IMG/VR virus record: IMGVR_UViG_3300045988_015629
DNA length: 42,847 nucleotides
Source: a virus
Lineage: Duplodnaviria > Heunggongvirae > Uroviricota > Caudoviricetes
Strand: one strand, 5' to 3'
The translations under genes and the position numbers were made by a program. Positions within the stretch are counted from its first letter, which is position 1; each line of letters begins with the position of its first letter. Below, in pieces: positions 1 through 42,847 of the stretch. The notes under the pieces were generated by a model. It worked only from the letters and a program-made list of their open reading frames with translations, was not told where the DNA came from and ran no database searches.

Positions 1-271
1 CGGTAGTAGCGAGCGAAGTTTTCTCGTAGGTGGCGGCGGTAGCGCCTGGGATAGCGTTGTTATCTTTGTACCACTGGTATGTGTACGGGGCCAGACCGCC
101 AGTTACGGCTACGGTAAGAGTCATCGTCTGCCCCGTAGACTTGGTAGTGGTAGCGGCAAGTGCGGTAGAAAAAGATGCGGGCGAGATATTCGCCATATCG
201 ATTTCAACCTGACCATCGGCAGGAGAATCATCAGAAACACCGGTAATGCGACGTTTAATTACATCAACCAT
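1..271 (-). CDS. Ig-like domain virion protein, N-terminal part; gene crosses the window junction and continues at 42713..42792 (total about 116 aa)
   Basis: ATG at 271-269 preceded by AAGGAG; reading frame is continuous with the ORF ending at 42713 once the 55-bp terminal overlap is removed; translation contains a YTYQWYKDNNAIPGATAATY motif typical of phage Ig-like domains. Confidence 0.6.
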   Translation of the reverse strand, partial: MVDVIKRRITGVSDDSPADGQVEIDMANISPASFSTALAATTTKSTGQTMTLTVAVTGGLAPYTYQWYKDNNAIPGATAATYEKTSLATT

Positions 272-283
272 TTTTAAGCTCCT

Positions 284-583
284 TTAGCTTACGGTTCCTG
301 CGTTTTTAAGCGCAGTCAACAGATTTGCTACGGTAGTGCGCAGCGCGGTAACATCAGTTCGGAGTTTGTTGTACTCCGCTACAAGAGCATCGAACTCGGC
401 CTTAGTCAGGTCCGCAGCGGACTGCGACCCGGCGGCAGCGGTAATGGCCGCGGGTGCATCCACAGTAGCTGACTTTTTAACGCCACCAACTACGCTGGTA
501 GTAGCAGGCGTGACTGGGATATCAAAGTCGCCGAAATCGACATTCTGAAGGCTGCGCGGCAAGCCTTTTCCGGTCTTAGCCAT
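284..583 (-). CDS. hypothetical virion-associated protein (99 aa)
   Basis: ORF directly downstream of the capsid gene on the same strand; no recognisable motif. Confidence 0.45.
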   Translation of the reverse strand: MAKTGKGLPRSLQNVDFGDFDIPVTPATTSVVGGVKKSATVDAPAAITAAAGSQSAADLTKAEFDALVAEYNKLRTDVTALRTTVANLLTALKNAGTVS

Positions 584-642
584 AATTTACCTCTTAGTAA
601 ATGAAAAGAGGGACCGAAGTCCATCTCGATTATATCTTAACC

Positions 643-1692
643 TTAAGCCCCGACACCAGTTACCAGGAAGGCAATCGGTACATGCTTACGGTCAACCACA
701 CGGTTCCAGTTGGAGGCGTTCGCCAGGTCCTGCCAGGAAGCGGAACGTGCGACAGTCTCGGTGCCGTTACCGGTGATTACCGCGCTGGTGAAGCTGTAGC
801 CCAGTGGATGCAGCAACCAGGTCTTACGGGTCCACAGGGTTTCAACGCCGCCACCGTTGCCGCGGGATTCTTCGCGCTCGTAGGCCAGCGGATTGGCCGG
901 GGAGCCTTCGCCGTAACCGATAGCGCCATTGCCAAAGATGATGGAGATGAACTTACGGCTCGGGCCGGTGCCGACTACGGTCATGCTGTCGTCAACAATC
1001 ACACGGTAGCCCTGGTAGGTGGCAAACATGGTGTTGTTGTCGGCATCTTTGATGAAATCGATAAGCTGCTGCTTACGCGCCTGAGCGTACACGAAGCTGT
1101 GCATCGCGATAGCACCCAGCACTTCACCGCCGTTGGCCATCAGCGCATCGCCCATAGTCTGGGTAGCGTCGATGAACGCGCCGGAGTCGAAGCCCAGAGT
1201 AGCGGACACGTCGATTACCATGTCATTCTGCTCGTGGTAAGCATCGGTAGCGGCTACGTTGTCGTTGTACAGACCGAGCGCGGTAGCAATCAGACGGCGT
1301 TGTGCCTGACGCTGCCAGAAGTTATCCAGACGGGACGCTACGGATTGCAGAGGGTTCTGGCTGGTCAGTTCGACAGTCAGGTCCGCCTGACCGAAACCTT
1401 CGTTCAGGTGCGCAACGCGGGCCATCATCTCGCCAGTCTGCACATTACGCGGGGTAGCGATGTCCTGATAAACATCGTTCGAGTAGTTAGGCTCGATAGA
1501 AGTATCAATCGCTTTCCAGAAAGGAATGTTGGCGACGTTGGACGGACCGCGAGCAATCTCGGCAGCGTACGGAGTCGGGGTCAGAATACCAGACTGGAAG
1601 AACGCGGTTTTTTCTACCGGGTCCTCGGTCATATAAGACGCCAGGACCGGGATGTTGCCAGTTACGATATCGCCGATAGTGGTAATTGCCAT
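643..1692 (-). CDS. major capsid protein (HK97-fold type inferred)
   Basis: 349-aa ORF immediately after the scaffold gene, strong RBS GAGGAAATAATA before ATG at 1692, position in head module. Confidence 0.75.
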   Translation of the reverse strand: MAITTIGDIVTGNIPVLASYMTEDPVEKTAFFQSGILTPTPYAAEIARGPSNVANIPFWKAIDTSIEPNYSNDVYQDIATPRNVQTGEMMARVAHLNEGFGQADLTVELTSQNPLQSVASRLDNFWQRQAQRRLIATALGLYNDNVAATDAYHEQNDMVIDVSATLGFDSGAFIDATQTMGDALMANGGEVLGAIAMHSFVYAQARKQQLIDFIKDADNNTMFATYQGYRVIVDDSMTVVGTGPSRKFISIIFGNGAIGYGEGSPANPLAYEREESRGNGGGVETLWTRKTWLLHPLGYSFTSAVITGNGTETVARSASWQDLANASNWNRVVDRKHVPIAFLVTGVGA

Positions 1693-11724: not shown

Positions 11725-12221
11725 GTTTTACATACTTTCGTACCGAACGGCGCGGAGCCATCTGTTATTACATAATAGAAACTGTGTTTGCACTCCTGTG
11801 TACAGGCTGTTGCCCCATACTCAAGTCCGTCCCACTCACGCTTGCCGCATTCGCAGCAAAACAGGCTACCGGGCACGTTGTCCTTGTTGCCTTCGGCAAT
11901 AAACAATCCTGGAGCGATAATCCAATTGTGGTCACATTCCTGCGTATCTTCTTTTCGGCAACCAGATTGCTCCGAACCGTACGCACCTTTGCGGATAAGT
12001 TTGTATGCCTCCACGTCACCAGTAGCCTCGGCCAATGCCAGACGCAACTCCTTAACTTGCCCTGTCAGGTGCGATATGTGCTCAGATTTCTTAATGTTGT
12101 CTTCCCGCAACTCCTTAATCTGCACCTCATGCGCCAGGTCTTCGCACCGGTTGTTATTTACCTGATGCCGTAGCTGGTCAATCAGGTGCTCGAATACTTC
12201 GTTTTTGTTACTCACCATCAC
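11706..12221 (-). CDS. cysteine-rich putative zinc-binding protein (171 aa)
   Basis: Predicted coiled-coil N-terminus, C-terminal CCECG...CKTCG cysteine clusters. Confidence 0.45.
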   Translation of the reverse strand: MMVSNKNEVFEHLIDQLRHQVNNNRCEDLAHEVQIKELREDNIKKSEHISHLTGQVKELRLALAEATGDVEAYKLIRKGAYGSEQSGCRKEDTQECDHNWIIAPGLFIAEGNKDNVPGSLFCCECGKREWDGLEYGATACTQECKHSFYYVITDGSAPFGTKVCKTCGEYF

Positions 12222-12423
12222 CGTCCCCTTCCTCGCTAATTAGTTCGAATTTACCGTTTGCGTGCTTAATGGCTTCTTGCCCACAATGGTCGCAAACCAA
12301 CAGTTTATCGAACCCATCAAACTCATCCCCTACCACGCAAGACAGTACAAATTTATGCTTGGTGCATACTTCTTGCGGAGCACCGAAAATTGCGTGAAAA
12401 CATCTCGCCACTGCATTAAACAT
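12208..12423 (-). CDS. small zinc-binding protein (71 aa)
   Basis: C...C/H...CDHCG pattern and acidic tail; first gene after the promoter at about 12445-12480. Confidence 0.45.
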   Translation of the reverse strand: MFNAVARCFHAIFGAPQEVCTKHKFVLSCVVGDEFDGFDKLLVCDHCGQEAIKHANGKFELISEEGDGDGE

Positions 12424-12444
12424 CTTCCGTCTCTCCTCTCGCTT

Positions 12445-12480
12445 GTGTAAATGAATAGTAGCTTATTCTATCTTAGTGTG
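12445..12480 (-). promoter_or_regulatory. conserved early-type promoter, divergent copy (TTGCAC-N17-TACTAT with embedded GAATAG dyad)
   Basis: Related to the 36-bp elements at 13744-13779 and 35655-35690. Confidence 0.45.
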
Positions 12481-12490
12481 CAAGTAAATT

Positions 12491-12664
12491 TTATTGGTGT
12501 GTTATAGAGTCGATGAACGCCAGTAACCCCCTTTCCGCTTCTGCTTCTCTTTCTTCAAGCGACCAGGTAGCGGATTCCTCTGTTGCCGTTGCTAAATCGG
12601 TTTTCGCATCAACCATCGTGTCGATTAACGTGATTAGTCGTTCAGCCTGTTCTTTAGTAATCAT
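12491..12664 (-). CDS. hypothetical protein (57 aa, below the ORF-track threshold)
   Basis: Hand-translated ORF MITKEQAERLITLIDTMVDAKTDL... filling a gap between annotated early genes. Confidence 0.3.
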   Translation of the reverse strand: MITKEQAERLITLIDTMVDAKTDLATATEESATWSLEEREAEAERGLLAFIDSITHQ

Positions 12665-12798
12665 TGTTGCATCTCCTGCAATAGTCGCTTCGATTGTTGC
12701 GTTTGATGAAAGTGTCGCCTTTTGACGACACTAAGTTAAAGTTGTACGCTGCGGTGTAGCAGCGTAAGTCACTCAGTAAAATCCCAAACTATTGAACA

Positions 12799-12999
12799 TC
12801 ACACTTCTGGCGGCTCGGGTAACGGCATCCAGTGCGTCACGTACTTATCGTAGTGATTCCAGAAAGGCTTTCTCCCGTCATCAGGAACTATGTAATAATC
12901 GTGCTGAACTGCGTTATTTAACGTTTCATACACCAGGAACTCTTTATCCGTATACCCATTACCCGGCAGCATCTCACTACACTTAATCCACTCACCCAT
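12799..12999 (-). CDS. DUF551-like small phage protein
   Basis: C-terminal HWMPLPEPP motif characteristic of DUF551 proteins. Confidence 0.5.
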   Translation of the reverse strand: MGEWIKCSEMLPGNGYTDKEFLVYETLNNAVQHDYYIVPDDGRKPFWNHYDKYVTHWMPLPEPPEV

Positions 13000-13143
13000 A
13001 CCTCACACCTCTTTCAATCAAGGATTGCACACCAGCTTTCCACGCCCGCCACGCGAGACGCGTCTTAACGTTCAGGTACTCTTTCTTTGAACCCTTGTTA
13101 ACCGGCAGACCCTCGACCACAGCCCACCGTTCAAATGCTTCTC

Positions 13144-13332
13144 TCATACCAGAACCTCACATTCATCCCGATACACGAACAATAACGACCCTTTGTACTC
13201 AATCATAAAACCATAATGGTTGATGCTGAACGCCGGAAAAACATCACCTACCGAGATACCGAAATCTATAAGCCTGCGGTCAGTTATACGGACAAGCCTG
13301 CGGTCAGTTATACGGATTCGCATTAACGGCAA
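13144..13332 (-). CDS. hypothetical protein containing an 8-aa tandem repeat
   Basis: Encodes RITDRRLV RITDRRLI from a 24-bp tandem duplication at 13269-13316. Confidence 0.35.
   Translation of the reverse strand: MPLMRIRITDRRLVRITDRRLIDFGISVGDVFPAFSINHYGFMIEYKGSLLFVYRDECEVLV
13269..13316. repeat. 24-bp tandem direct repeat x2 (AGCCTGCGGTCAGTTATACGGA core)
   Basis: Two adjacent copies, 23/24 identical, read directly. Confidence 0.8.
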
Positions 13333-13526
13333 CCTCCCTCAGAGTCGTCGGCACAAGCATCACGATTCGATGCCGTTCGTATTGCTCGTAAGCTATTTAA
13401 CATTCGCTCGCTGGTAGATGTAATAACCGTTATACCGTCCGCCAGATGCACCTCGTAGCGTTCAGCTACGAAATATATTTCCTCGAAATCATGATGTTTC
13501 AGTTCTTCAAATAATTCTTCCATCAC
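13323..13526 (-). CDS. hypothetical acidic early protein (67 aa)
   Basis: ORF in early operon. Confidence 0.4.
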   Translation of the reverse strand: MMEELFEELKHHDFEEIYFVAERYEVHLADGITVITSTSERMLNSLRAIRTASNRDACADDSEGGCR

Positions 13527-13714
13527 TTCGCCCCTTTAAATTTAAAATTTTTGCCGATGAGTTTTAAGTTCTCCTCCGCTACGTATATTTGTGAATTTAC
13601 TCCTCTCACATTTTGCACGGTAACTACGTACTTTCCTGGAAATAAAGCAGATTTTAATTCAATTATGCCGTGTTTATCGTCGGAGTATTTAACCAACTGA
13701 CCACGTTTAAACAT
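13523..13714 (-). CDS. hypothetical early protein, first gene of the leftward early operon
   Basis: ATG at 13714 with AGGAG RBS; track ORF uses GTG at 13723. Confidence 0.45.
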   Translation of the reverse strand: MFKRGQLVKYSDDKHGIIELKSALFPGKYVVTVQNVRGVNSQIYVAEENLKLIGKNFKFKGAK

Positions 13715-13743
13715 AACCCTCACTCCTCTGTCTCGTTTCGATA

Positions 13744-13779
13744 AGTGAATAGTATCCTATTATGTTGGGGTGTGCAAGA
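13744..13779 (-). promoter_or_regulatory. conserved 36-bp early promoter element (minus-strand TTGCAC-N17-TACTAT; contains GAATAG-N4-CTATTA dyad)
   Basis: About 33/36 identical to 35655-35690 in the opposite orientation. Confidence 0.55.
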
Positions 13780-13822
13780 GAATAGTTACGTTGCCGTTGT
13801 GATTCTTTAGTTTAATGGGATA

Positions 13823-13880
13823 GCGAGCGAAACGAAACGAACGTGGTGCCGAAGGCACCAAGAGTGAGTGAGTGAGCTTG
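13823..13880. repeat. short tandem repeats flanking a hairpin: (CGAAA)2-3, GGTGCC-GAA-GGCACC, (GAGT)4
   Basis: Read directly; lies in the 457-bp divergent control region. Confidence 0.7.
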
Positions 13881-13989
13881 CGGATATAACCCACGGCAAA
13901 TCAGTAACTTAGATATTTAGGCGGGAATTACAATAGACTTTGGGCCTCCCAAACGCGCCAGCGAGCCTCACTCCACACGCTACACGTGC

Positions 13990-14080
13990 TCGTTTCGCCT
14001 GCCGCGCGCCGCGGTCGCTTGTTCATACTTCACAAGCTCAGGCTGAGCTTACCATATTTTTAAGTAAAAGTCAATACCGG
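13990..14080 (-). promoter_or_regulatory. conserved promoter-plus-leader element B (paralog of element A)
   Basis: -35 TTGACT at 14069-14074 and -10 TAAGCT at 14046-14051 on the minus strand; core 14005-14042 identical to 3158-3195. Confidence 0.55.
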
Positions 14081-14121
14081 TAGCATCTTTTGTATCTTAG
14101 TAACTTTGTGTGGTGTTTTGG

Positions 14122-14150
14122 TTGCTTTTACATTCCCGCTATCCTATACT
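14122..14150 (+). promoter_or_regulatory. sigma70-like promoter TTGCTT-N17-TATACT for the rightward replication operon
   Basis: Hexamers with 17-bp spacing about 35 bp upstream of the first plus-strand gene. Confidence 0.45.
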
Positions 14151-14181
14151 TGGCTTCACCAAACAAACAGGAGATTTAAAA

Positions 14182-14364
14182 ATGCAACATTACATGACCC
14201 AGAATGAAGTAGCCGAGCGTATCGGGGTGACACGTCAGACAATTAATAACTGGTTGCGCAGTGGTAAATTCCCGGATTGTTGTATTAAGGTTATGGGCCG
14301 CCGGATGCCGGGAACATTCGACCGTAATAAAGTTGAAGCGTGGATTAAGGAGAACGTGAAATGA
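14182..14364 (+). CDS. small HTH DNA-binding protein (excisionase/AlpA-like fold inferred)
   Basis: MTQNEVAERIGVTRQTINNWLRSGKFP helix-turn-helix signature; ATG at 14182 with GGAG RBS (track ORF uses GTG at 14110). Confidence 0.6.
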   Translation: MQHYMTQNEVAERIGVTRQTINNWLRSGKFPDCCIKVMGRRMPGTFDRNKVEAWIKENVK

Positions 14365-14594
14365 TTGGGCGTATGGGTTGTAGCTTCCGCGAAGACGGCA
14401 GCATTAAATATTATTTCAAGATTGCGTCAAATATAACCGACGATGGGTGTTATGTAGAACTTTTCCCTTATAACTTTTGTGGACCCACTAAAATAGTTAA
14501 ATTTTCTATAGAGGATATCCTTGATTGCAGTTTTTACCGTAGCGAAGGAGAGTGGGTTAATGCGGTGCGTAGACAAAAGAAACCCCAACGCTAG
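14361..14594 (+). CDS. hypothetical protein (77 aa), AT-rich
   Basis: ORF with noticeably lower GC than its neighbours. Confidence 0.4.
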   Translation: MIGRMGCSFREDGSIKYYFKIASNITDDGCYVELFPYNFCGPTKIVKFSIEDILDCSFYRSEGEWVNAVRRQKKPQR

Positions 14595-22946: not shown

Positions 22947-23138
22947 ATGAAACACGAATACGACCGCAAACCAGCACGTGACATCGTACCGGGTGACATG
23001 ATTTTCAACGTTAAGACACGTCAACCTGTTGCCGTTGATACGGTGTTCGTCGAGTCGAACGGTAAACTGGTTATCGAAGATGTAACGGGTAACGTTACGG
23101 CGTTCGGGCGTAAAGAGCTGGTGCTGGTGGCGAAATGA
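22947..23138 (+). CDS. hypothetical protein (63 aa)
   Basis: ORF with AAGGAA RBS. Confidence 0.4.
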   Translation: MKHEYDRKPARDIVPGDMIFNVKTRQPVAVDTVFVESNGKLVIEDVTGNVTAFGRKELVLVAK

Positions 23139-23959
23139 ACTATTACAACGAATGGGATAAAGGCGCAGCCGCGTGGCTGCGTGAATTAATAAAACATGGT
23201 CACATACCTTTTGGAGTTGTAGATGAAAGAAGCATTACCGAAGTTAAGCCAGAAGACCTTGACGGGTTCACCCAGTGTCATTTTTTCGCTGGTATCGGCG
23301 GCTGGCCTCTCGCGCTCAGACTTGCGGGAGTTTCGGAGGATACGCCTCTCTGGACGGGAAGCCCGCCTTGCCAACCGTTTAGCACGGCAGGAAAACAACT
23401 CGGACAGTTCGACCCGAGACACCTCGCGCCGGTCTTCCTCGACATCATCAGCGAGTGCCGCCCTCCAGTCATCTTTGGGGAGCAGGTTGCGGCAGCAATT
23501 GCAAAATCGTGGATGTGCGATTTACAAGCTCACCTGGAAGGAGAAGACTACGCCGTCGGGTTTGCTGTTCTCCCAGCTTGTAGCGTCGGCGCACCGCACA
23601 AAAGAGAACGACTCTTCTTTGGCGCGCACGAACTGGCCTACACCGACAGCGAACGACTTCAGAGGGAGCGGAGAGACAGTGATTCGCACGGACGGGAGGG
23701 ACAGAACATTCGACAGGCTGGACTACTCAACAGAGCAGGGATTGAAAGCGAGTCAACCAACCCGCACCACGGCTTCTGGTCAGATGCTGACTGGCTCGGA
23801 TGCCGTGATGGAAAGTTCCGGCCGGTTGAACCCGGCGCATTCCCGCTGGCTAATGGGATACCCGCAAGAGTGGGACGATTGCGCGGTTACGGCAATGCCA
23901 TCGTCCCGCAAGTAGCCGCTGAATTTATAAAGGCATTCATGGGGGCGGTAAATGAGTAA
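23135..23959 (+). CDS. DNA (cytosine-5)-methyltransferase, compact (274 aa)
   Basis: Motif I FFAGIGG, motif [10 protein letters not shown] (catalytic Cys), ENV-like FGEQV, motif [12 protein letters not shown], motif X-like GYGNAIVP. Confidence 0.8.
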
Positions 23960-25376
23960 GTTTCAAAGGCGCGAATACCAGAAGCTCATGACTTCGTTCA
24001 TGCTGCGGCACCATCGCTGTAATATTTGGGCGAGTATGGGTGCCGGGAAGACTGGCAGCGTACTGTGGGTCTTAAACCGACTGTTCCGCAACGGCCAACT
24101 TAATGATGGCGACCGGGTGTTAATTCTGGCTCCTTTACGTGTTGCGTCCGGCACATGGCCGGCAGAGCAAGAGAAATGGAATTTCCCATGTCTGCGTGTC
24201 GTAGACGCGACAGGTTCAGAGAAGCGCCGCATCGCGGCGCTGGAGTCAGATGCTAACGTGGTGTGCACGAACTACGAAGTTATCGAGTGGCTGATCGACT
24301 ACTACGGCAAAGATGACTGGCCTTTTACGGTTATCGTTGCCGATGAGAGCACGAAGCTGAAATCATTCCGCAGCCGTTCAGGTGGTAGCAAGCGGGCAAA
24401 GGCGCTCAGTAAGGTGGCGTTTGGAAAGGTTAAGCGTTTTATAAACCTTACCGGCACGCCCTCACCAAACGGCCTCAAGGACTTGTGGGGTCAGAACTGG
24501 TTTATCGACGCTGGCGAACGCCTAGGTTCTTCGTACACGGCATTCACCGACCGCTGGTTTAACTCGGTACAGAAAGGAAAGTCGGCGATGGCGCGCGAAT
24601 ACCACGCCCGTCCTGGCGCGGATAATGAAATTCACCAGAAGATGAAGGACATCAGCCTCACTATTGACGCCGCTGAGTGGTTCGGGTGTGAAGCGCCGAT
24701 TATTGTTACGGTTGAAATCGACCTGCCGAAGAAAGCACGTCAGGCGTACATCGATATGGAGGAGAAGTTATTCGCGGAACTTGAGAGCGGGGAAGTGGAA
24801 GCTGCTAACGCTGCGGCGAAGACGTCGAAGTGCTTGCAAATTGCGTCCGGTGCCGTATATGTATCGGGGCCAGACGGCGAAGCAACCAAAGACTGGGAGA
24901 AAGTACACGACACGAAACTGGACGCGCTGGAGTCCATTGCCGAGGAGTTGCAGGGTGCGCCGTTACTAGTCGCCTATCAGTTCAAGCACGAACTGGAGCG
25001 CATCCTCAAGCGCTTCCCGCAGGCGCAGGCTTTTGCAAAAGGCGCGAAGGGCAATAAGCAGATGGAAGCGTGGAACCGTGGCGAAATCGAAATCCTATGC
25101 GTGCACCCCGCGTCAGCCGGCCATGGTTTGAATTTACAGGACGGCGGACATCATCTGGCGTTCATCTCGCAAGGCTGGAACCTTGAACACTATTTGCAGG
25201 TTGTCGAGCGTATAGGCCCTGTCCGCCAGAAACAGGCAGGTCATGAGCGCCCGGTGTTCCTCTATCACATCGTTGCAAAAGACACGCTGGACGAGGTTGT
25301 TGCCGCGCGTACTGACGAGAAGAAATCCGTCCAGGAAGAGTTGCTTAACTACATGAAGAGACGAGGTAAGAAATGA
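23952..25376 (+). CDS. SNF2-family DNA helicase
   Basis: N-terminal GAGKTG, DExx-like VIVADEST, LTGTPSPNGLKDLW and a C-terminal helicase domain. Confidence 0.8.
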   Translation: MSKFQRREYQKLMTSFMLRHHRCNIWASMGAGKTGSVLWVLNRLFRNGQLNDGDRVLILAPLRVASGTWPAEQEKWNFPCLRVVDATGSEKRRIAALESDANVVCTNYEVIEWLIDYYGKDDWPFTVIVADESTKLKSFRSRSGGSKRAKALSKVAFGKVKRFINLTGTPSPNGLKDLWGQNWFIDAGERLGSSYTAFTDRWFNSVQKGKSAMAREYHARPGADNEIHQKMKDISLTIDAAEWFGCEAPIIVTVEIDLPKKARQAYIDMEEKLFAELESGEVEAANAAAKTSKCLQIASGAVYVSGPDGEATKDWEKVHDTKLDALESIAEELQGAPLLVAYQFKHELERILKRFPQAQAFAKGAKGNKQMEAWNRGEIEILCVHPASAGHGLNLQDGGHHLAFISQGWNLEHYLQVVERIGPVRQKQAGHERPVFLYHIVAKDTLDEVVAARTDEKKSVQEELLNYMKRRGKK

Positions 25377-25576
25377 ATAATGAGTTTGATATTGACGCCT
25401 GCAACGAATTGGTAAAATCTGCTCTTAATGCCCGCGAGCAACTTCTTGCTATGCAGTTAAAGCGAGAAATAAAACGTATCAAGGAACTTGAAGAGGAGGT
25501 TCTACGACTACGGCAGCAAAGAGACGCCGCTAACGCACAACTGGCGTTTGTACTGGAGAAGCTATCAGAAGAGTAG
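25373..25576 (+). CDS. hypothetical protein with predicted coiled coil (67 aa)
   Basis: Last gene of the rightward operon. Confidence 0.4.
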   Translation: MNNEFDIDACNELVKSALNAREQLLAMQLKREIKRIKELEEEVLRLRQQRDAANAQLAFVLEKLSEE

Positions 25577-25608
25577 AGAAAAGGCCCCGTTTGGGGCCTT
25601 AGTTTTAT
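25576..25608. terminator. bidirectional rho-independent terminator at the replication/tailspike convergence
   Basis: GGCCCCGTTTGGGGCC hairpin flanked by AGAAAA and TTAGTTTTA. Confidence 0.75.
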
Positions 25609-28559
25609 TTATCTTCTAGTGCTGCCAGCCTCTTCTCGAACTCGCGCATCTTCTTACGCTGATAGGCAATCTCTATGAAGAACATCTGGTCCGCCCTAAC
25701 CCCCCATCTGCCGCCGGGAGGGGATACTTGTACAGTCTGACCATCTTCATCAATATCATACGTAGCTTCAATTGAGTCGTAGCACAAGAAAGCATATTTA
25801 CAGTATGTAGAACCCTCCTCCATAAGCCCATGGTTGACCAAGATGTCTCGCACATCTTGGGCTATCACACCGAAGTGTATCCTTGCAGTGTCACCCTTGA
25901 TTGCTAGGCTTTCAAGCCACTTAAAAGATATTACATGTATATCCTCCCATGCGGTAAGGAGTTGTCCCTCAATTTCCTCTTTGTTCGTCTTAAGTGTACC
26001 ATCAGACGTGTTTATCGTACCGGTGGTCGCGTACACCGTAGTCCACCTATTACCTGCCGAACCTAAAGACACTTGCGAGTCTAAGTAAGGAAGGAAATTG
26101 TTGTATGAGTAGAAGCCTCCTGACGCATACATAATAGCCCTGTTAGGCCTTGCATGGTTTGCCCCGTACAGTTGCAGCAACGCACCATCGGAACTGGATG
26201 CACCATCACCACCGCTAACTATCAGTCTTTGACCCGATGGGGTTTTAGTGGGGACTGTTTTTGAAATCAGCCCGTAATCACCATCAAACCGTGCACGCAC
26301 GGCAGACTGTTGTGTGCCATCATATTCCAGACCAGTTACATGCAGGGAGTACACGCTTACATCATTGTCAAACGTTAAAGGTGCTTCTACATGGCGTACA
26401 CCATCTACCCCCATGGCGACAGGTATTGTACGGTTAGGAGTTGCTCCGTATTTGAAATCACGTGATACATACGGGTGGTCTTCAATCTTTATCCGGTAGC
26501 TATATAAGTCAGCCGGGTGCCCATCATGTTTGTACCATAACTTCGCACTGTTATCCCCGATGCTCCAGGGAGAGAAGAAGTCTTCCCCTCCAAAGATATA
26601 GTACAACCAGCCATCTTTAACACAGACAGAGCCGACGCCGACGGCAGTGTTAACGATATGGCCCTGGTATATTTGGTCGGTAATATTAAACCACTGAACA
26701 TCATCTAAAGATGAAGGCCAGGACGACACATTGACTTTGCACATAAAGGTCCTCGGATACGAACCTTCATAGCGGCTGCCCGGCTCGCCACCTTCCCACT
26801 CACCAAATGCACGTTCTGTACCAAAGATGTAGAGATAGTCACCTACTTTAGCGAACGGAAGATTGGAGTGATGTACATTGTTCGGGAATCGCAAGTAGCT
26901 CCAGTTTTGCCCAGAATCGGTGCTCATCGCCAGTGTAGAGCCGGGGGAAGTAGGTAATGTGCCGCGTGTGGTAAGGTAGAGCACACCGCCATAACTTTTC
27001 ACACACGGCTCAGAAGCGTTATCAGCGTATGCCTGAGCGACAGTGCGACGAACGAATACGCCTGGATTGTCATACACGTTACTAAAATACAAGACACCGA
27101 GACGCCGAGGGGACACATCGCCGTTGTGATAGCCGACAGCGATAGTGTAGTTAGCATCATCTATAACCGCAAAACTATGTGTCTCCGTGACACACAAATC
27201 AGCGTTAGTGGAGTATGCCACCCCCGGCAATTCGGTAATTTCCCATGGGCTGTCCCAGAATAGCGTTGCGAAGTTCCAGGTAACCCCCGCATTGTTTATG
27301 GTGGAGCCCGCAGGGCTTGAGAGCGTAACAGTGAACGTATTTCGGTTAATTATAGACGCAACCGTCATATTACCCGATACGCCAGTTGCCGATGTATTAG
27401 AGAAGTTAACCGCATCTCCTGCTTTTAGGCCATGATTTTCTATGACAATGGTAGCAGTAGTGGAGCCAGAACTAATAGTTATTCCGCCGGTTGGGTGTCT
27501 AAAATACGGCATTGGGCGTGACCAAAGTTCTGCCTTCTTCATCCGCATATTAGATAAGTAGCGGGTTTCTATAACTGCATATAATCGGTTGCCGCACGTA
27601 CCCATGCTCATGCAGTGGTAGTTAACTCTGTCCGTAGAAACACTAGCATTATAGTCAGCATGGATTGGAGTCAACCACTCAGGCATTGACCAAGTCTGCC
27701 CGTCGTCTCCAGAGCGAACCCAAGCTACATGTAAGTTTTGAACACCATGTCGTTCGCCCGCCATAAACGGGGCGTAAATAACATGGTCGTAGACGAAAGT
27801 TTTATCCTGCGTCCATGCGTTGTAGAACGGGGTATCCGTCACCTTAGTTAGTGAGCCGTTAAAGAAGCCATCAGCTACATAAGTAAGCGGTTGCCCGGCT
27901 ACGCGCTCGTAAACGAATGCAGCATTCTTAAATTTACTAATGTCAGGTAATTGGGAAACTTTATAAGTCAAACCCCTGCCGTCTATAATCCAATTGTTGG
28001 GGGAAGCTGCTAATACATTAAAAATAGATTGAGTATCATCAGTTACGCCGTCGCCCACGGCGCCCCATGCGCGCGGGTCGTATTCGTCCTTCCATCGCGC
28101 CACATGTAAATCTGGGTACAGAATTGCACCGTTTACATCAGATATTTGCTGCCGCAGTATGACCGACCCGACAGGCTGCCACGCCCCATCTGCCACGCCA
28201 CCGGTGGACTGCGGAGAAGATGACGCCGGGATAATTTTTGGTAGAGCACCCAACCAATAGTACCAATCCCCGTCACCGCCAGAGGACGACGGCCACAAAA
28301 CTGCGGTGTTTCGGTCGTTAGCGGATAGTGTACCGCCTGACGTGAAATCAAAATCTGCCAGTTTAAAACCAGCATCACGCAACACGGCAGGTAACGTCTT
28401 CTGGGTCTGTCCAGTAACCTGATTTGTCGCGTAATCAATATCGGCACCACCGGCGACACCGCCGGATTTGCCAGTGGTAACCTCGGCCTCGAAAATCTGA
28501 TGTTTCTTGGCGGTTTGTAAATCCGCCAGGCTTAAAACGTCACCGCATCCGCTTGACAT
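25605..28559 (-). CDS. tailspike / tail fibre protein with C-terminal intramolecular chaperone (peptidase S74-like) domain
   Basis: 984 aa; C-terminal ...SLGSAGNRWTTVYATTGTINTSDGTLKTNKEEIEG... resembles the autoproteolytic chaperone domain of endosialidase-type tailspikes; RBS AAAGAGGA. Confidence 0.75.
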   Translation of the reverse strand: MSSGCGDVLSLADLQTAKKHQIFEAEVTTGKSGGVAGGADIDYATNQVTGQTQKTLPAVLRDAGFKLADFDFTSGGTLSANDRNTAVLWPSSSGGDGDWYYWLGALPKIIPASSSPQSTGGVADGAWQPVGSVILRQQISDVNGAILYPDLHVARWKDEYDPRAWGAVGDGVTDDTQSIFNVLAASPNNWIIDGRGLTYKVSQLPDISKFKNAAFVYERVAGQPLTYVADGFFNGSLTKVTDTPFYNAWTQDKTFVYDHVIYAPFMAGERHGVQNLHVAWVRSGDDGQTWSMPEWLTPIHADYNASVSTDRVNYHCMSMGTCGNRLYAVIETRYLSNMRMKKAELWSRPMPYFRHPTGGITISSGSTTATIVIENHGLKAGDAVNFSNTSATGVSGNMTVASIINRNTFTVTLSSPAGSTINNAGVTWNFATLFWDSPWEITELPGVAYSTNADLCVTETHSFAVIDDANYTIAVGYHNGDVSPRRLGVLYFSNVYDNPGVFVRRTVAQAYADNASEPCVKSYGGVLYLTTRGTLPTSPGSTLAMSTDSGQNWSYLRFPNNVHHSNLPFAKVGDYLYIFGTERAFGEWEGGEPGSRYEGSYPRTFMCKVNVSSWPSSLDDVQWFNITDQIYQGHIVNTAVGVGSVCVKDGWLYYIFGGEDFFSPWSIGDNSAKLWYKHDGHPADLYSYRIKIEDHPYVSRDFKYGATPNRTIPVAMGVDGVRHVEAPLTFDNDVSVYSLHVTGLEYDGTQQSAVRARFDGDYGLISKTVPTKTPSGQRLIVSGGDGASSSDGALLQLYGANHARPNRAIMYASGGFYSYNNFLPYLDSQVSLGSAGNRWTTVYATTGTINTSDGTLKTNKEEIEGQLLTAWEDIHVISFKWLESLAIKGDTARIHFGVIAQDVRDILVNHGLMEEGSTYCKYAFLCYDSIEATYDIDEDGQTVQVSPPGGRWGVRADQMFFIEIAYQRKKMREFEKRLAALEDK

Positions 28560-28571
28560 ATAGAGTCCTCT

Positions 28572-31127
28572 TTAATTAAAACCATTGCTGAATCCGTCGG
28601 AGAAACCGCTGCCGTATGGCGCGACGCCGTCGTATTTGTAGAATCCGTCGTCATAGTTGTAGCCAGTAATCTTGACAGTGCGGTCGTCGCCGGGGTCGAT
28701 TGAAGAAACAACTATCTTCTGAGCATTATGCCTTGCTTCGTTGCCGAATGAAAACTCAGTTTTTAGTGCGCTATTCCCTGTATAGACTGCCTCCTCCGGC
28801 GCGGATAGCATAATCACCTCGCGGTCATGGCTTCCTTTGGTAACAGAGATACTCTGCACAGAGCCGTCGCGCTTCTTAAGGATGATGGAGTGGTCGTCGC
28901 CTGGGGTAAACGTAACCGGTTGAGATAGCGTAAGTGTAAGCCCATTAACGGCAACAACATAACCATCCTGAGGCGCGATGCGGGAGCCTTTAACAACGCT
29001 GATCACCCCGCCGGGGGTAGCTAGCGCGCCCTCTTCAGTAGCCTCGAACTCTACAACAACTTTACTTAATGTGTTGCGCTGGTAACGACGCCATGCCAGC
29101 CAATATGCCTGTTGGTAGTTACGCACGCCCTTCGATTCATATTTCTCGGTATTTGCACCGAGTTCTTCCGGGATATAAATAGTTTCCTGTACGTTAGTAT
29201 CCGGGTCGATGTATGAGAACGACAGGCTATCGTAGGTTGTCGAATCGTTGAACGTGCGGGTCCATTTCTCGGTACCGGTAGTTTTGCTGCGGTGGGTGAA
29301 CACCATTTCAGGCCCCGCGACAGGACGGTCGAATCGCAGCATAATATCCGCACCTTTACGGTACGCAGTACAGAAAACGGCTTCCGCTATGGTCTGGACG
29401 ATGTCCTGCATGGTTGTGTCATAGTCGTCGAACGTGTAGCAGAATTGCCCTGCTAATTCACTTCCGAAATAGGACTCAATTTCTTCCTGCACAGCAAGTA
29501 ACTTGTCCATGTTTGCCGTTGTCAGTTCCAGATTGCCTACTGCGGGGTCGCGCGCCAGTCGAATTAGAGATTGTACGGCTTGCGTGTTCGGTGTCATTAC
29601 TGTATCGAATACCCCATTGCCGAGGTATTTGTAACACATCTCGGTTGCAATCATGCGCAGTTCCGGGTTGTCTATGCTGGCGGCACGCGGCGTCTGTTTA
29701 CGTGCGCAATGCACGGTAGTTCGGTTGCCGTAGTGTGGGGTTGTGTCCAGCGACTGCCCGTACAGGTTGATGAAGGTTATCTCGTCGCTTACTGTACCGT
29801 TGTAGTCCTTATCAAAATTCGTTATACGGCGCATACGGGCGCGGAAACGCGATGCAGTAGGCAATCGCCCGTAGATAGACGTACCGACGTAATCCGTGCT
29901 ATTACCGGTAATTGTAGCCTGTACTGTGTAAATATCGCTCAACGGGTTACGCTGAGAATCAATCATCTGGTACTGGAGTTCTACGGTTACGCTGGTGCGG
30001 TTGTAGCCGCCGTCGTATTTGTAGAGGCCGTTCTGCCCGGCTACGTTAGCGAGCACACGGTCGACTTCCCCACGCACCATGTAATACCAGTCTGTAAGGG
30101 ATACGTCGTAGGTGTTGCTCGGGCCGATAAACGTATCTGAACGCTCTGTTAGGGTGTACGTCTGTCCGCTGGTCAACGCCGCCCAGTTAGACGCTCCGTT
30201 TACCGCTAATCTTACTTCGAAGTCGTCAACGTATAAAACATCAAACGAGCCGTTCAGGTTAGTGACATCAGCAACGTCAAAGTTGCTAAGCACCGCCACA
30301 TCACCAACGCTAAGAAACTCAGAAAAAGCAGAGTCGCCTGACGGGTCATAGATGTAGCCGGTGTTTGAAATGCGTTTAGCCGTGCCGTCGGAGCTTGGGT
30401 TAGCTCCGATGTCGTTTGGTGCTTTCAGCACAATACCGTCAACGTCGTCGTTGGAGTATGTCACATAGAGTTTCTGGTCGATGACGTCGCCGATTTGTAG
30501 TTGCGGCGATGTGGTGTTGTTCGGTGACGTATACGGCGCGTATACGGCAACAGAGGAACCTGTGATGTCGCTTATCAGGGTGTCGCCCTCTGTGACGCCA
30601 TCAGCCTCAATATGCAGATGTCCGCGCCCCGCGTCATAGTACGAATACTCCAGCAAAGCACCAGTGGAGTTGAACGCCTTATACGTCTGCATCAGGTCAT
30701 TAGGTATTGTCTGCACAGTCCCGCAGATGTCATAGGAGCGCTCGTAAGGGCGTGGTTTGTTTGAGCGGTCTGTGAGGCTGTTATTTGGCGATGTTGTCTG
30801 GTTGTTAGTCGCCGTGTAGTTGGCGTTGGCGGCCGTGTTCAGGCCAAACAACTTGGCGATTGGCTTAAGGATAAAACCAAACACCTTACTAACCGCACCG
30901 AGCGCCCCGCCACCAGCACCCTCGATAATGTGATATACCGCGTCTTCGTCTTTAAGCGCATCGAAGTCATCGGTTACGTCTGTGTCATCGCCAATCTCAC
31001 CGAGGTAGACGCGCACCGGCACGCCGTCAGGGATACGACTAACGACAAACTCCATCGGCATCCCGACGTGTTTTGTACGGTCGAAAGCGCCATCAGCGTT
31101 TCGCGTGTAGTGCAGAATTATCGCCAA
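28572..31127 (-). CDS. central tail fibre / host-specificity protein (lambda J-like, inferred)
   Basis: 851-aa protein downstream of the K-like gene and upstream of the tailspike. Confidence 0.5.
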   Translation of the reverse strand: MAIILHYTRNADGAFDRTKHVGMPMEFVVSRIPDGVPVRVYLGEIGDDTDVTDDFDALKDEDAVYHIIEGAGGGALGAVSKVFGFILKPIAKLFGLNTAANANYTATNNQTTSPNNSLTDRSNKPRPYERSYDICGTVQTIPNDLMQTYKAFNSTGALLEYSYYDAGRGHLHIEADGVTEGDTLISDITGSSVAVYAPYTSPNNTTSPQLQIGDVIDQKLYVTYSNDDVDGIVLKAPNDIGANPSSDGTAKRISNTGYIYDPSGDSAFSEFLSVGDVAVLSNFDVADVTNLNGSFDVLYVDDFEVRLAVNGASNWAALTSGQTYTLTERSDTFIGPSNTYDVSLTDWYYMVRGEVDRVLANVAGQNGLYKYDGGYNRTSVTVELQYQMIDSQRNPLSDIYTVQATITGNSTDYVGTSIYGRLPTASRFRARMRRITNFDKDYNGTVSDEITFINLYGQSLDTTPHYGNRTTVHCARKQTPRAASIDNPELRMIATEMCYKYLGNGVFDTVMTPNTQAVQSLIRLARDPAVGNLELTTANMDKLLAVQEEIESYFGSELAGQFCYTFDDYDTTMQDIVQTIAEAVFCTAYRKGADIMLRFDRPVAGPEMVFTHRSKTTGTEKWTRTFNDSTTYDSLSFSYIDPDTNVQETIYIPEELGANTEKYESKGVRNYQQAYWLAWRRYQRNTLSKVVVEFEATEEGALATPGGVISVVKGSRIAPQDGYVVAVNGLTLTLSQPVTFTPGDDHSIILKKRDGSVQSISVTKGSHDREVIMLSAPEEAVYTGNSALKTEFSFGNEARHNAQKIVVSSIDPGDDRTVKITGYNYDDGFYKYDGVAPYGSGFSDGFSNGFN

Positions 31128-42712: not shown

Positions 42713-42847
42713 TTAAGATACAATTGCTCCGGTGCTGCTGGAGATAATATTACCGTATACATCGTGGACAACCACTTTATACGTACCGGAATCGGTAGTA
42801 GCGAGCGAAGTTTTCTCGTAGGTGGCGGCGGTAGCGCCTGGGATAGC
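42713..42847 (-). CDS. Ig-like domain virion protein, C-terminal part of the junction-spanning gene (see 1..271)
   Basis: Frame continuous with 1..271 across the terminal overlap; stop codon at 42713-42715. Confidence 0.6.
   Translation of the reverse strand, partial: AIPGATAATYEKTSLATTDSGTYKVVVHDVYGNIISSSTGAIVS
42793..42847. repeat. 55-bp exact terminal direct repeat (identical to 1-55)
   Basis: Direct comparison of the first and last 55 nt. Confidence 0.95.

Follow-up and report, generated by a model that had tools for sequence, protein, structure and literature searches.

Residues 852-984 of the tailspike described here almost certainly form a C-terminal intramolecular chaperone domain (CIMCD; MEROPS/Pfam Peptidase S74). 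The domain belongs to an endosialidase specific for the K1 capsule and, in the processing that we propose, would be cut from each chain of a trimeric spike. The domain architecture, the homology to solved CIMCDs, the conservation of the mechanism residues and the near-identity to enzymes reported as processed are directly apparent. Both the domain family and its mechanism are already known from the literature and from database annotations, as is the occurrence of the domain in endosialidases of the 63D, K1G and K1H type. Features are listed in Table 1.

Table 1. Features of the tailspike gene and its flanks.
Feature	Residues	Position	Strand	Basis and remarks
Ribosome-binding site AAGAGGA		28566..28572	-	6 nt 5' of the ATG at 28559; read from sequence
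Tailspike (endosialidase) gene	1-984	25605..28559	-	984 aa plus stop codon; ORF list
N-terminal virion-attachment module	1-165	28065..28559	-	Pfam, PDB and PHROG matches
Endosialidase catalytic head	166-693	26481..28064	-	Pfam; 4HIZ, 1V0E and 3GVL alignments
Head: N-terminal extension	167-233			
Head: six-bladed beta-propeller	234-693			
Head: inserted beta-barrel	351-432			
Stalk domain	694-851	26007..26480	-	Mature C-terminus T851; Pfam PF12219 End_tail_spike, E 9.6e-75
D827 codon	827	26079-26081	-	In stalk
R838 codon	838	26046-26048	-	In stalk
Predicted scissile bond T851-S852, codons ACG TCT	851-852	26004..26009	-	T-S invariant in homologues
K857 codon	857	25989-25991	-	Catalytic residue with S852
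C-terminal intramolecular chaperone domain (Peptidase S74)	852-984	25608..26006	-	133 aa, 15.3 kDa
C-terminal helix of chaperone domain (ADQMFFIEIAYQRKKMREFEKRLAALEDK)	956-984	25608..25694	-	3GW6 alignment
GC-rich hairpin AAGGCCCC-GTTT-GGGGCCTT		25581..25600	.	Terminator scan; minus-strand sequence read

The tailspike gene and its setting

The window is the whole stretch of DNA that was analysed, 42,847 nucleotides in length. Judged from its sequence, it is a complete Kagunavirus (Guernseyvirinae) genome. Phage K1G covers 99% of positions 21501-42847 at 96.0% nucleotide identity, and MirsaeidiM_Esher4 covers 85% of positions 1-21500 at 95.9%. The source phage differs very little from the published coliphages K1G, K1H and 63D. 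Scans of the whole window for tRNAs and Rfam families gave no matches.

The first-pass annotation described a 984-residue tailspike containing the string SLGSAGNRWTTVYATTGTINTSDGTLKTNKEEIEG. Both were found; the string corresponds to residues 831-865 of the minus-strand open reading frame. The nucleotide sequence of the gene is 98.1% identical to that of Escherichia phage L AB-2017, 97.6% to K1G, 96.8% to K1H, 97.3% to the endo-N-acetylneuraminidase gene of phage 63D ('Phage #D') and 96.0% to the JSSK01 orthologue. At the amino acid level, identity is 98.6% (K1G), 97.0% (K1H) and 97.8% (63D). Gene order around the spike is the same in K1G. The ribosome-binding site overlaps the TAA stop codon (28572-28574) of the upstream tail-protein gene, and the 63D record has a ribosome-binding site annotated at the equivalent position. 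At its other end, the gene is separated from a convergent open reading frame (25373..25576) by the hairpin. This hairpin is likely to act as a bidirectional intrinsic terminator.

Attachment module and catalytic head

The Pfam architecture of the tailspike is Tail_spike_N, End_N_terminal, End_beta_propel with an inserted End_beta_barrel, End_tail_spike and Peptidase_S74. Tail_spike_N (PF18668) matches residues 97-131 (E 1e-13). The N-terminal module also matches the N-termini of other tailspikes in the PDB (9VVR, 4OJ5 and 8X8M), as well as phrog_29731 and phrog_20900. In Kagunaviruses with other tailspikes, DNA similarity is found only over query nucleotides 2563-2955, equivalent to residues 1-131.

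The catalytic head and stalk match PF12217 (E 5.9e-224), PF12195 (E 2.6e-41), PF12219 (E 9.6e-75) and PF12218 (E 1.2e-38). The structures 4HIZ, 1V0E and 3GVL align with the tailspike across residues 166-851. All parts of the endosialidase (GH58) architecture, namely a beta-propeller, an inserted beta-barrel and a stalk, are present. In the 1V0E alignment, H271, R485, E517, R532 and R583 align with H350, R549, E581, R596 and R647 of the K1F enzyme; an offset of +244 from chain to K1F numbering was assumed, and is backed by agreement of all five residue types. The K1F residues are listed as catalytic or substrate-binding (PMC12632334).

These alignments identify the central region as a GH58 endosialidase with specificity for the polysialic-acid capsule of the K1 type. 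The first-pass annotation had offered a capsule or LPS depolymerase. The former stands (End_beta_propel; 4HIZ and 1V0E). An LPS depolymerase was rejected, because the tailspike has every one of the four endosialidase Pfam domains as well as the catalytic residues. By analogy with the K1H and JSSK01 enzymes, the tailspike is predicted to degrade alpha-2,8-polysialic acid. Such degradation of the K1 capsule has been shown for K1H (PMC5696595) and for JSSK01 (PMC11641727), and the genes for both enzymes share 96-97% nucleotide identity with the tailspike gene. The JSSK01 orthologue carries annotations for the same four Pfam domains, and immunogold labelling places it at the tail tip (PMC11641727). 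The assignment identifies recognition of the K1 capsule as the host-range determinant.

The C-terminal domain and its proposed processing

An S74 chaperone domain had been proposed at the C-terminus, and we detected one. Peptidase_S74 (PF13884) matches residues 852-912 over its full profile (1-58/58) with a score of 48.9 bits (E 7.9e-13); the Pfam gathering cutoff is 22 bits. The match is far beyond chance. The last 181 residues of the tailspike match the solved stalk and chaperone of the K1F endosialidase (3GW6, E 1.3e-41). Sequence homology to 3GW6 covers the whole chaperone domain in two stretches, the second of which (E 1.6e-6) aligns the C-terminal helix with the last 42 residues of the structure. 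The domain also matches the GA-1 neck appendage (3GUD, E 2.3e-12), T5 pb1 with its chaperone (4UW8, E 1.8e-7) and the tail proteins 9VVR and 7Y5S. A homologue is present in 310 phage records. An AlphaFold2 model of residues 756-984, made from a single sequence, was uninformative (mean pLDDT 34, pTM 0.27).

The End_tail_spike match (694-851) stops exactly at residue 851 and adjoins the S74 domain, which runs from residue 852 to the stop codon. The boundary is exactly at T851-S852. A domain of roughly 150 residues had been expected. Its location at the C-terminal end was correct; its size was slightly overestimated, the domain proper having 133 residues. The span 25605-26100 takes in the stop codon and residues 820-984, which comprise the chaperone domain and the last 32 stalk residues with D827 and R838.

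At the N-terminal boundary of the S74 domain there is a Ser-Lys dyad (S-x4-K) preceded by Thr. In the published mechanism, the Ser/Lys pair is the catalytic dyad and an arginine stabilises the oxyanion (PMC3742443). This conserved Arg is supplied by the neighbouring chain of a three-fold stalk (PMC4690869). Here, D827 precedes S852 by 25 residues, and R838 precedes it by 14. The spacing of D827, R838, T851, S852 and K857 equals that of D1239, R1250, T1263, S1264 and K1269 in T5 pb1, which is cleaved at Thr1263-Ser1264 (PMC4690869). The T-S-x4-K motif is invariant in the aligned homologues (9/9), which come from siphoviruses, podoviruses, myoviruses and a Bacillus phage. The upstream D and R occupy the same column in seven of the nine; in the other two, the R is one column off. 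The segment T851-S852-D-G-T-L-K857 is in register with 3GW6 (an S911A mutant), 9VVR, 7Y5S and 3GUD. The suggested likeness to the autoproteolytic domains of endosialidases and L-shaped fibres holds at the level of the S852/K857 dyad and of D827, R838 and T851.

Cleavage at T851-S852 would yield a mature spike chain with a computed mass of 92.7 kDa and a released 133-residue domain of 15.3 kDa. In the K1H enzyme (97.0% identical), all five mechanism residues are the same as in the tailspike. Recombinant K1H enzyme is reported to migrate at 93 kDa "after proteolysis" and to be mostly trimeric by size-exclusion chromatography (PMC5696595). By analogy, this is consistent with the trimeric, proteolytically matured protein that had been foreseen. 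In addition, the crystallised mature endosialidase chain 4HIZ terminates at ...GTINT, which aligns with T851.

We consider it very improbable that the S74-like domain is kept in the mature spike, as an uncleaved C-terminal cap or a receptor-binding tip. Such retention would be compatible with the predicted size of ~113 kDa, the only one given for the recombinant JSSK01 protein (PMC11641727), although this value speaks neither for nor against processing. However, all five cleavage residues are intact, the K1H orthologue migrates at its processed size (PMC5696595) and the 4HIZ chain stops at the position equivalent to T851. Furthermore, a retained chaperone blocks receptor binding by T5 pb1 (PMC4690869).

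There is scarcely any chance that the 63D-type siphovirus endosialidase is a tetramer, with a C-terminal domain that works unlike the trimeric K1F chaperone. Spikes of elongated shape often behave anomalously in gel filtration. Over their full length, the catalytic and stalk regions align with crystal structures that are trimeric (4HIZ, with three chains, and 1V0E). A review does list the 63D enzyme as '108/tetramer', a homotetramer, citing Machida et al. 2000 (PMC5380687), and this conflicts with a trimer-dependent mechanism. Conversely, size-exclusion chromatography showed the K1H enzyme, with 97% identity to the tailspike, to be mostly trimeric (PMC5696595), and the equivalent of the conserved R838 acts from the neighbouring chain of a three-fold stalk (PMC4690869). 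Hence, since the K1H enzyme is trimeric, we judged tetrameric assembly unlikely.

For cleavage of a trimeric spike, we infer by analogy that the domain acts as a chaperone, that events follow the order given below and that the process depends on trimers. The C-terminal helix is expected to form a trimeric coiled coil; the equivalent helix of T5 pb1 is a triple coiled coil (PMC4690869). The C-terminal domain would gather three nascent chains, with the last helix forming the coiled coil, and would nucleate folding of the trimeric stalk. In a correctly folded stalk, R838 of the neighbouring chain would lie between D827 and T851 and form the oxyanion hole. K857 would then activate S852, and the T851-S852 bond would be cut in every chain. 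The 15.3-kDa domain would depart to leave a kinetically stable 3 x 92.7-kDa spike. The N-terminal 165 residues would dock this spike to the siphovirus tail tip, and the beta-propeller would cleave the alpha-2,8-polysialic acid of the E. coli K1 capsule. Proteolytic release reportedly confers processivity, and cleavage may unmask a polysialic-acid binding site in the stalk.

The result matters little beyond correct annotation of the tailspike. Anyone who expresses the depolymerase, for instance for anti-K1 therapy or as a reagent for polysialic acid, would need to clone the full-length gene. A C-terminal tag would be lost in processing, and the active product should be a ~93-kDa chain in a trimer.

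Relation to known systems

The closest relatives are the endosialidases of the Kagunavirus phages K1G, K1H and 63D (ADA82273, ADA82322 and BAA32990), which are also 984 residues long. Their genes share the same position, downstream of a large tail protein gene and convergent with the helicase-side genes. Their chaperone domains are 97.0%, 96.2% and 94.7% identical to that of the tailspike, respectively, and all cleavage residues are identical. Across residues 820-984 there are only 4-8 substitutions, such as E915K, G916D, Y919S/D and T933A, and none is at a mechanism residue.

The closest solved catalytic region is that of the 4HIZ endosialidase, which gives an alignment free of large gaps across residues 166-851 (1298 bits). 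The chaperone domain of the tail fibre protein of myovirus PNJ1809-36 is 58% identical to that of the tailspike. Both proteins have an N-terminal adaptor unlike that of the tailspike. The tailspike chaperone lacks 29 mid-domain residues found in PNJ1809-36 and in the P22-like 720R6 spike. Tentatively, this gap may mark the Kagunavirus domain as a minimal chaperone. If this short form supports folding of the same stalk just as well, long tentacles would be dispensable, and the 133-residue module could serve as a compact, portable tag for trimerisation and cleavage.

The K1F endosialidase (endoNF; 3GW6) has a homologous stalk end and chaperone, with T-S-x4-K, the upstream D and R and the C-terminal helix. 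Homology extends to its catalytic head (1V0E, E 1.4e-229). In the hairpin region (query 129-140 versus chain 202-234), the K1F chaperone has ~21 more residues. The 29-residue gap falls where K1F forms its stalk-embracing hairpin 'tentacles'. K1F is a podovirus with a T7-type N-terminal adaptor, whereas the tailspike has a Tail_spike_N-type N-terminus and belongs to a siphovirus.

The L-shaped tail fibre of T5 (pb1; 4UW8) and the neck appendage of Bacillus phage GA-1 (gp12; 3GUD) carry the same kind of chaperone domain, with the same spacing of D, R, T, S and K and cleavage at Thr-Ser. The T5 domain also has 133 residues; the 29-residue deletion brings the Kagunavirus chaperone to this size. 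Sequence identity is low, at about 28-32% (tblastn), and the mature parts, a fibre and an appendage, are unrelated to the tailspike sialidase. By description, the ICA domain of eukaryotic MYRF, a trimerisation domain that cleaves itself, is homologous and has the same Ser/Lys dyad (PMC3742443). Unlike the tailspike domain, it resides in a membrane-bound transcription factor, and it frees the N-terminal part for nuclear entry.

Domain architecture of the tailspike

The first-pass annotation placed a self-cleaving intramolecular chaperone at the C-terminus of the tailspike. The span proposed, 25605-26100, encodes residues 820-984 and the stop codon. This interpretation is supported. The motif quoted, SLGSAGNRWTTVYATTGTINTSDGTLKTNKEEIEG, is present at residues 831-865. 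The Pfam architecture is complete, with non-overlapping domains, and the Peptidase_S74 (PF13884) match that was to be sought scores 48.9 bits against a cutoff of 22 bits. Coordinates are collected in the table.

Coordinates of the tailspike gene, its domains and other features of the genome
Feature	Position (nt)	Residues	Strand	Detail
Tailspike ORF	25605..28559		-	984 aa, ORF list
Ribosome-binding site AAGAGGA	28566-28572			tailspike; rated good
Hairpin	25581-25600			separates tailspike gene and convergent ORF
Convergent ORF	25373..25576			67 aa
Tail_spike_N		97-131		Pfam, E 1e-13
End_N_terminal		167-233		Pfam, E 1.2e-38
End_beta_propel		234-693		Pfam, E 5.9e-224
End_beta_barrel, inserted		351-432		Pfam, E 2.6e-41
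End_tail_spike		694-851		Pfam, E 9.6e-75
Peptidase_S74, 'chaperone of endosialidase'		852-912		Pfam, E 7.9e-13
Module boundary	28153-28167	about 131-136		sharp
Stretch missing from chaperone domain	about 25740-25760	about 933-940		mid-domain
C5-cytosine methylase gene	23135-23959		+	
Nested ORF	23223-23915		+	230 aa
Low-GC region	about 12200-14400			GC 0.456 vs about 0.52

The last 181 residues were searched separately against solved structures. Matches were to 3GW6 (K1F stalk plus chaperone; E 1.3e-41), 9VVR (tail spike; E 3.4e-22), 7Y5S (tail fibre; E 8.8e-20), 3GUD (GA-1 neck-appendage chaperone; E 2.3e-12) and 4UW8 (T5 L-shaped fibre with chaperone; E 1.8e-7). Hence, the likeness to endosialidase-type and L-shaped-fibre chaperones, first noticed from the sequence alone, is borne out. 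In the full protein, 3GW6 aligns with residues 756-984.

The centre of the spike, previously 'possibly' a depolymerase, can be described more firmly. The 4HIZ endosialidase chain aligns almost without gaps to residues 166-851 (1298 bits) and the K1F endosialidase (1V0E/3GVL) matches the same region (E about 1e-229). Residues H350, R549, E581, R596 and R647 of K1F function in catalysis or substrate binding (PMC12632334); their tailspike counterparts are H271, R485, E517, R532 and R583. Taken with the Pfam domains, these matches identify the central region as a predicted K1 polysialic-acid endosialidase.

Predicted cleavage and assembly

The cleavage mechanism of the T5 fibre pb1 was transposed from K1F. 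In pb1, a neighbouring chain contributes R1250, which is placed between D1239 and T1263 and creates an oxyanion hole, and S1264, activated by K1269, cuts the Thr1263-Ser1264 bond (PMC4690869). The family's catalytic dyad is serine and lysine, with the oxyanion stabilised by arginine (PMC3742443). Tailspike residues D827, R838, T851, S852 and K857 have spacings (25, 14, 1 and 5 residues) exactly as in pb1. We aligned the window protein with eight homologues from phage genomes: PNJ1809-36 (myovirus), 720R6 and CUS-3 (P22-like), fFiEco02 (non-K1 Kagunavirus), VEc3 (Vectrevirus), VLC5 (Klebsiella phage), GA-1 (Bacillus phage) and Mydo (Proteus phage). T-S-x4-K was invariant in all nine. The upstream D and R were found in seven; in the other two the R is one column earlier.

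The crystallised mature chain 4HIZ ends ...GTINT, aligned to T851, and the Pfam boundary between stalk and S74 domains falls directly after this residue. From a precursor of 107.9 kDa, the predicted cut, T851|S852, would yield a mature chain of 92.7 kDa and a 133-aa fragment of 15.3 kDa (computed masses). A single-sequence AlphaFold model reached a pLDDT of only 34.

The self-cleaving chaperone is a known feature, annotated in near-identical published phages. The tailspike is 98.6%, 97.0% and 97.8% identical to the proteins of K1G (ADA82273), K1H (ADA82322) and 63D (BAA32990). The chaperone domain differs from theirs at just 4-7 positions (97.0-94.7% identity), and the mechanism residues are unchanged. 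Phage 63-D has already been named among those presumed to use the pb1-type mechanism (PMC4690869). The recombinant K1H enzyme is reported to run at 93 kDa following proteolysis, and it degrades K1 capsule (PMC5696595). For the JSSK01 orthologue, the same Pfam domains are annotated, PF13884 included, and immunogold labelling located the protein at the tail tip (PMC11641727). Processing and trimer state, seen for the 97%-identical orthologue only, would extend to the window protein by analogy. Were the S74 domain instead uncleaved, it would be retained in the spike. This is unlikely because the catalytic set is intact and the K1H product is 93 kDa (PMC5696595). That a 63D-type enzyme is a tetramer, as a review states for 63D (homotetramer; PMC5380687), is highly improbable; the 97%-identical K1H enzyme is mostly trimeric by size-exclusion chromatography (PMC5696595) and crystal structures of close homologues are trimeric. 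The published record is discrepant on this point.

We favour a cleaved trimer; architecture, homology and residue conservation are observed for the window protein, and the most likely pathway is as follows. Three chains would come together through their C-terminal domains, as homology to the trimers 3GW6 and 4UW8 suggests, and these domains would template the trimeric stalk. Correct folding of the stalk would complete three inter-subunit active sites, and K857-activated S852 would attack the T851 carbonyl. The chaperone would then be released. The SDS-stable trimer would dock to the tail tip via residues 1-165 and depolymerise the K1 capsule. By analogy, K1F work suggests that the chaperone is needed for folding.

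Genome setting and spike modularity

A complete Kagunavirus genome makes up the window. Positions 1-55 exactly repeat 42793-42847, which looks like an assembler k-mer overlap on a circularly closed contig; hence, this is a complete phage genome (unique length 42,792 bp) rather than a fragment. On nucleotide comparison, the genome is mosaic. K1G covers 99% of 21501-42847 at 96.0% identity. The left half (1-21500) has no single close relative; Escherichia phage MirsaeidiM_Esher4 is best (85% coverage at 95.9%) and others cover 67-79% at 88-93%. Around the spike, genes stand in the K1G order, which runs from DNA polymerase through small ORFs, C5-methylase and SNF2 helicase to the convergent spike, tail protein and tape measure.

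The tailspike gene begins 12 nt beyond the stop codon of the gene for the large tail protein and ends 4 nt before the GC-rich hairpin. This hairpin (perfect, 8 bp; AAGGCCCC GTTT GGGGCCTT) lies in the 28-nt gap before the convergent ORF, has T-rich flanks on both sides and is probably a bidirectional terminator. Elsewhere, the C5-cytosine methylase gene contains a nested ORF in another frame, the K1G equivalent of which is recorded as a 'putative Mte8-like protein'. This ORF may not be a real gene, since a Pfam search of it gave no match and its composition is Ser/Arg-rich. In the region of lowest GC, at the switch from - to + strand genes, the ORFs of both strands are all short (45-85 aa); this is probably an early or regulatory region.

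The tailspike is modular. With its gene as the nucleotide query, Kagunaviruses of other specificities (matches H23-H25) share only query nt 2563-2955, encoding residues 1-131, at 75-79% DNA identity. Conversely, phage XY1 (match H20) shares residues 136-984 only. Because of these complementary matches, the module boundary is taken to mark a putative recombination joint between tail adaptor and receptor-destroying part. Against PDB entry 9VVR, the tailspike aligns in its N-terminal adaptor and chaperone domain and not in its centre. Homologues of the chaperone domain are present in 310 phage records spanning many genera.

Comparison with known chaperone domains

Departures of the window domain from known members are minor. 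The PNJ1809-36 (myovirus) and 720R6 (P22-like) spikes have 29 more residues in this domain, and K1F has about 21 more. The missing stretch corresponds to the K1F hairpin-tentacle region. The T5 pb1 chaperone, like that of the window, has 133 residues (PMC4690869).
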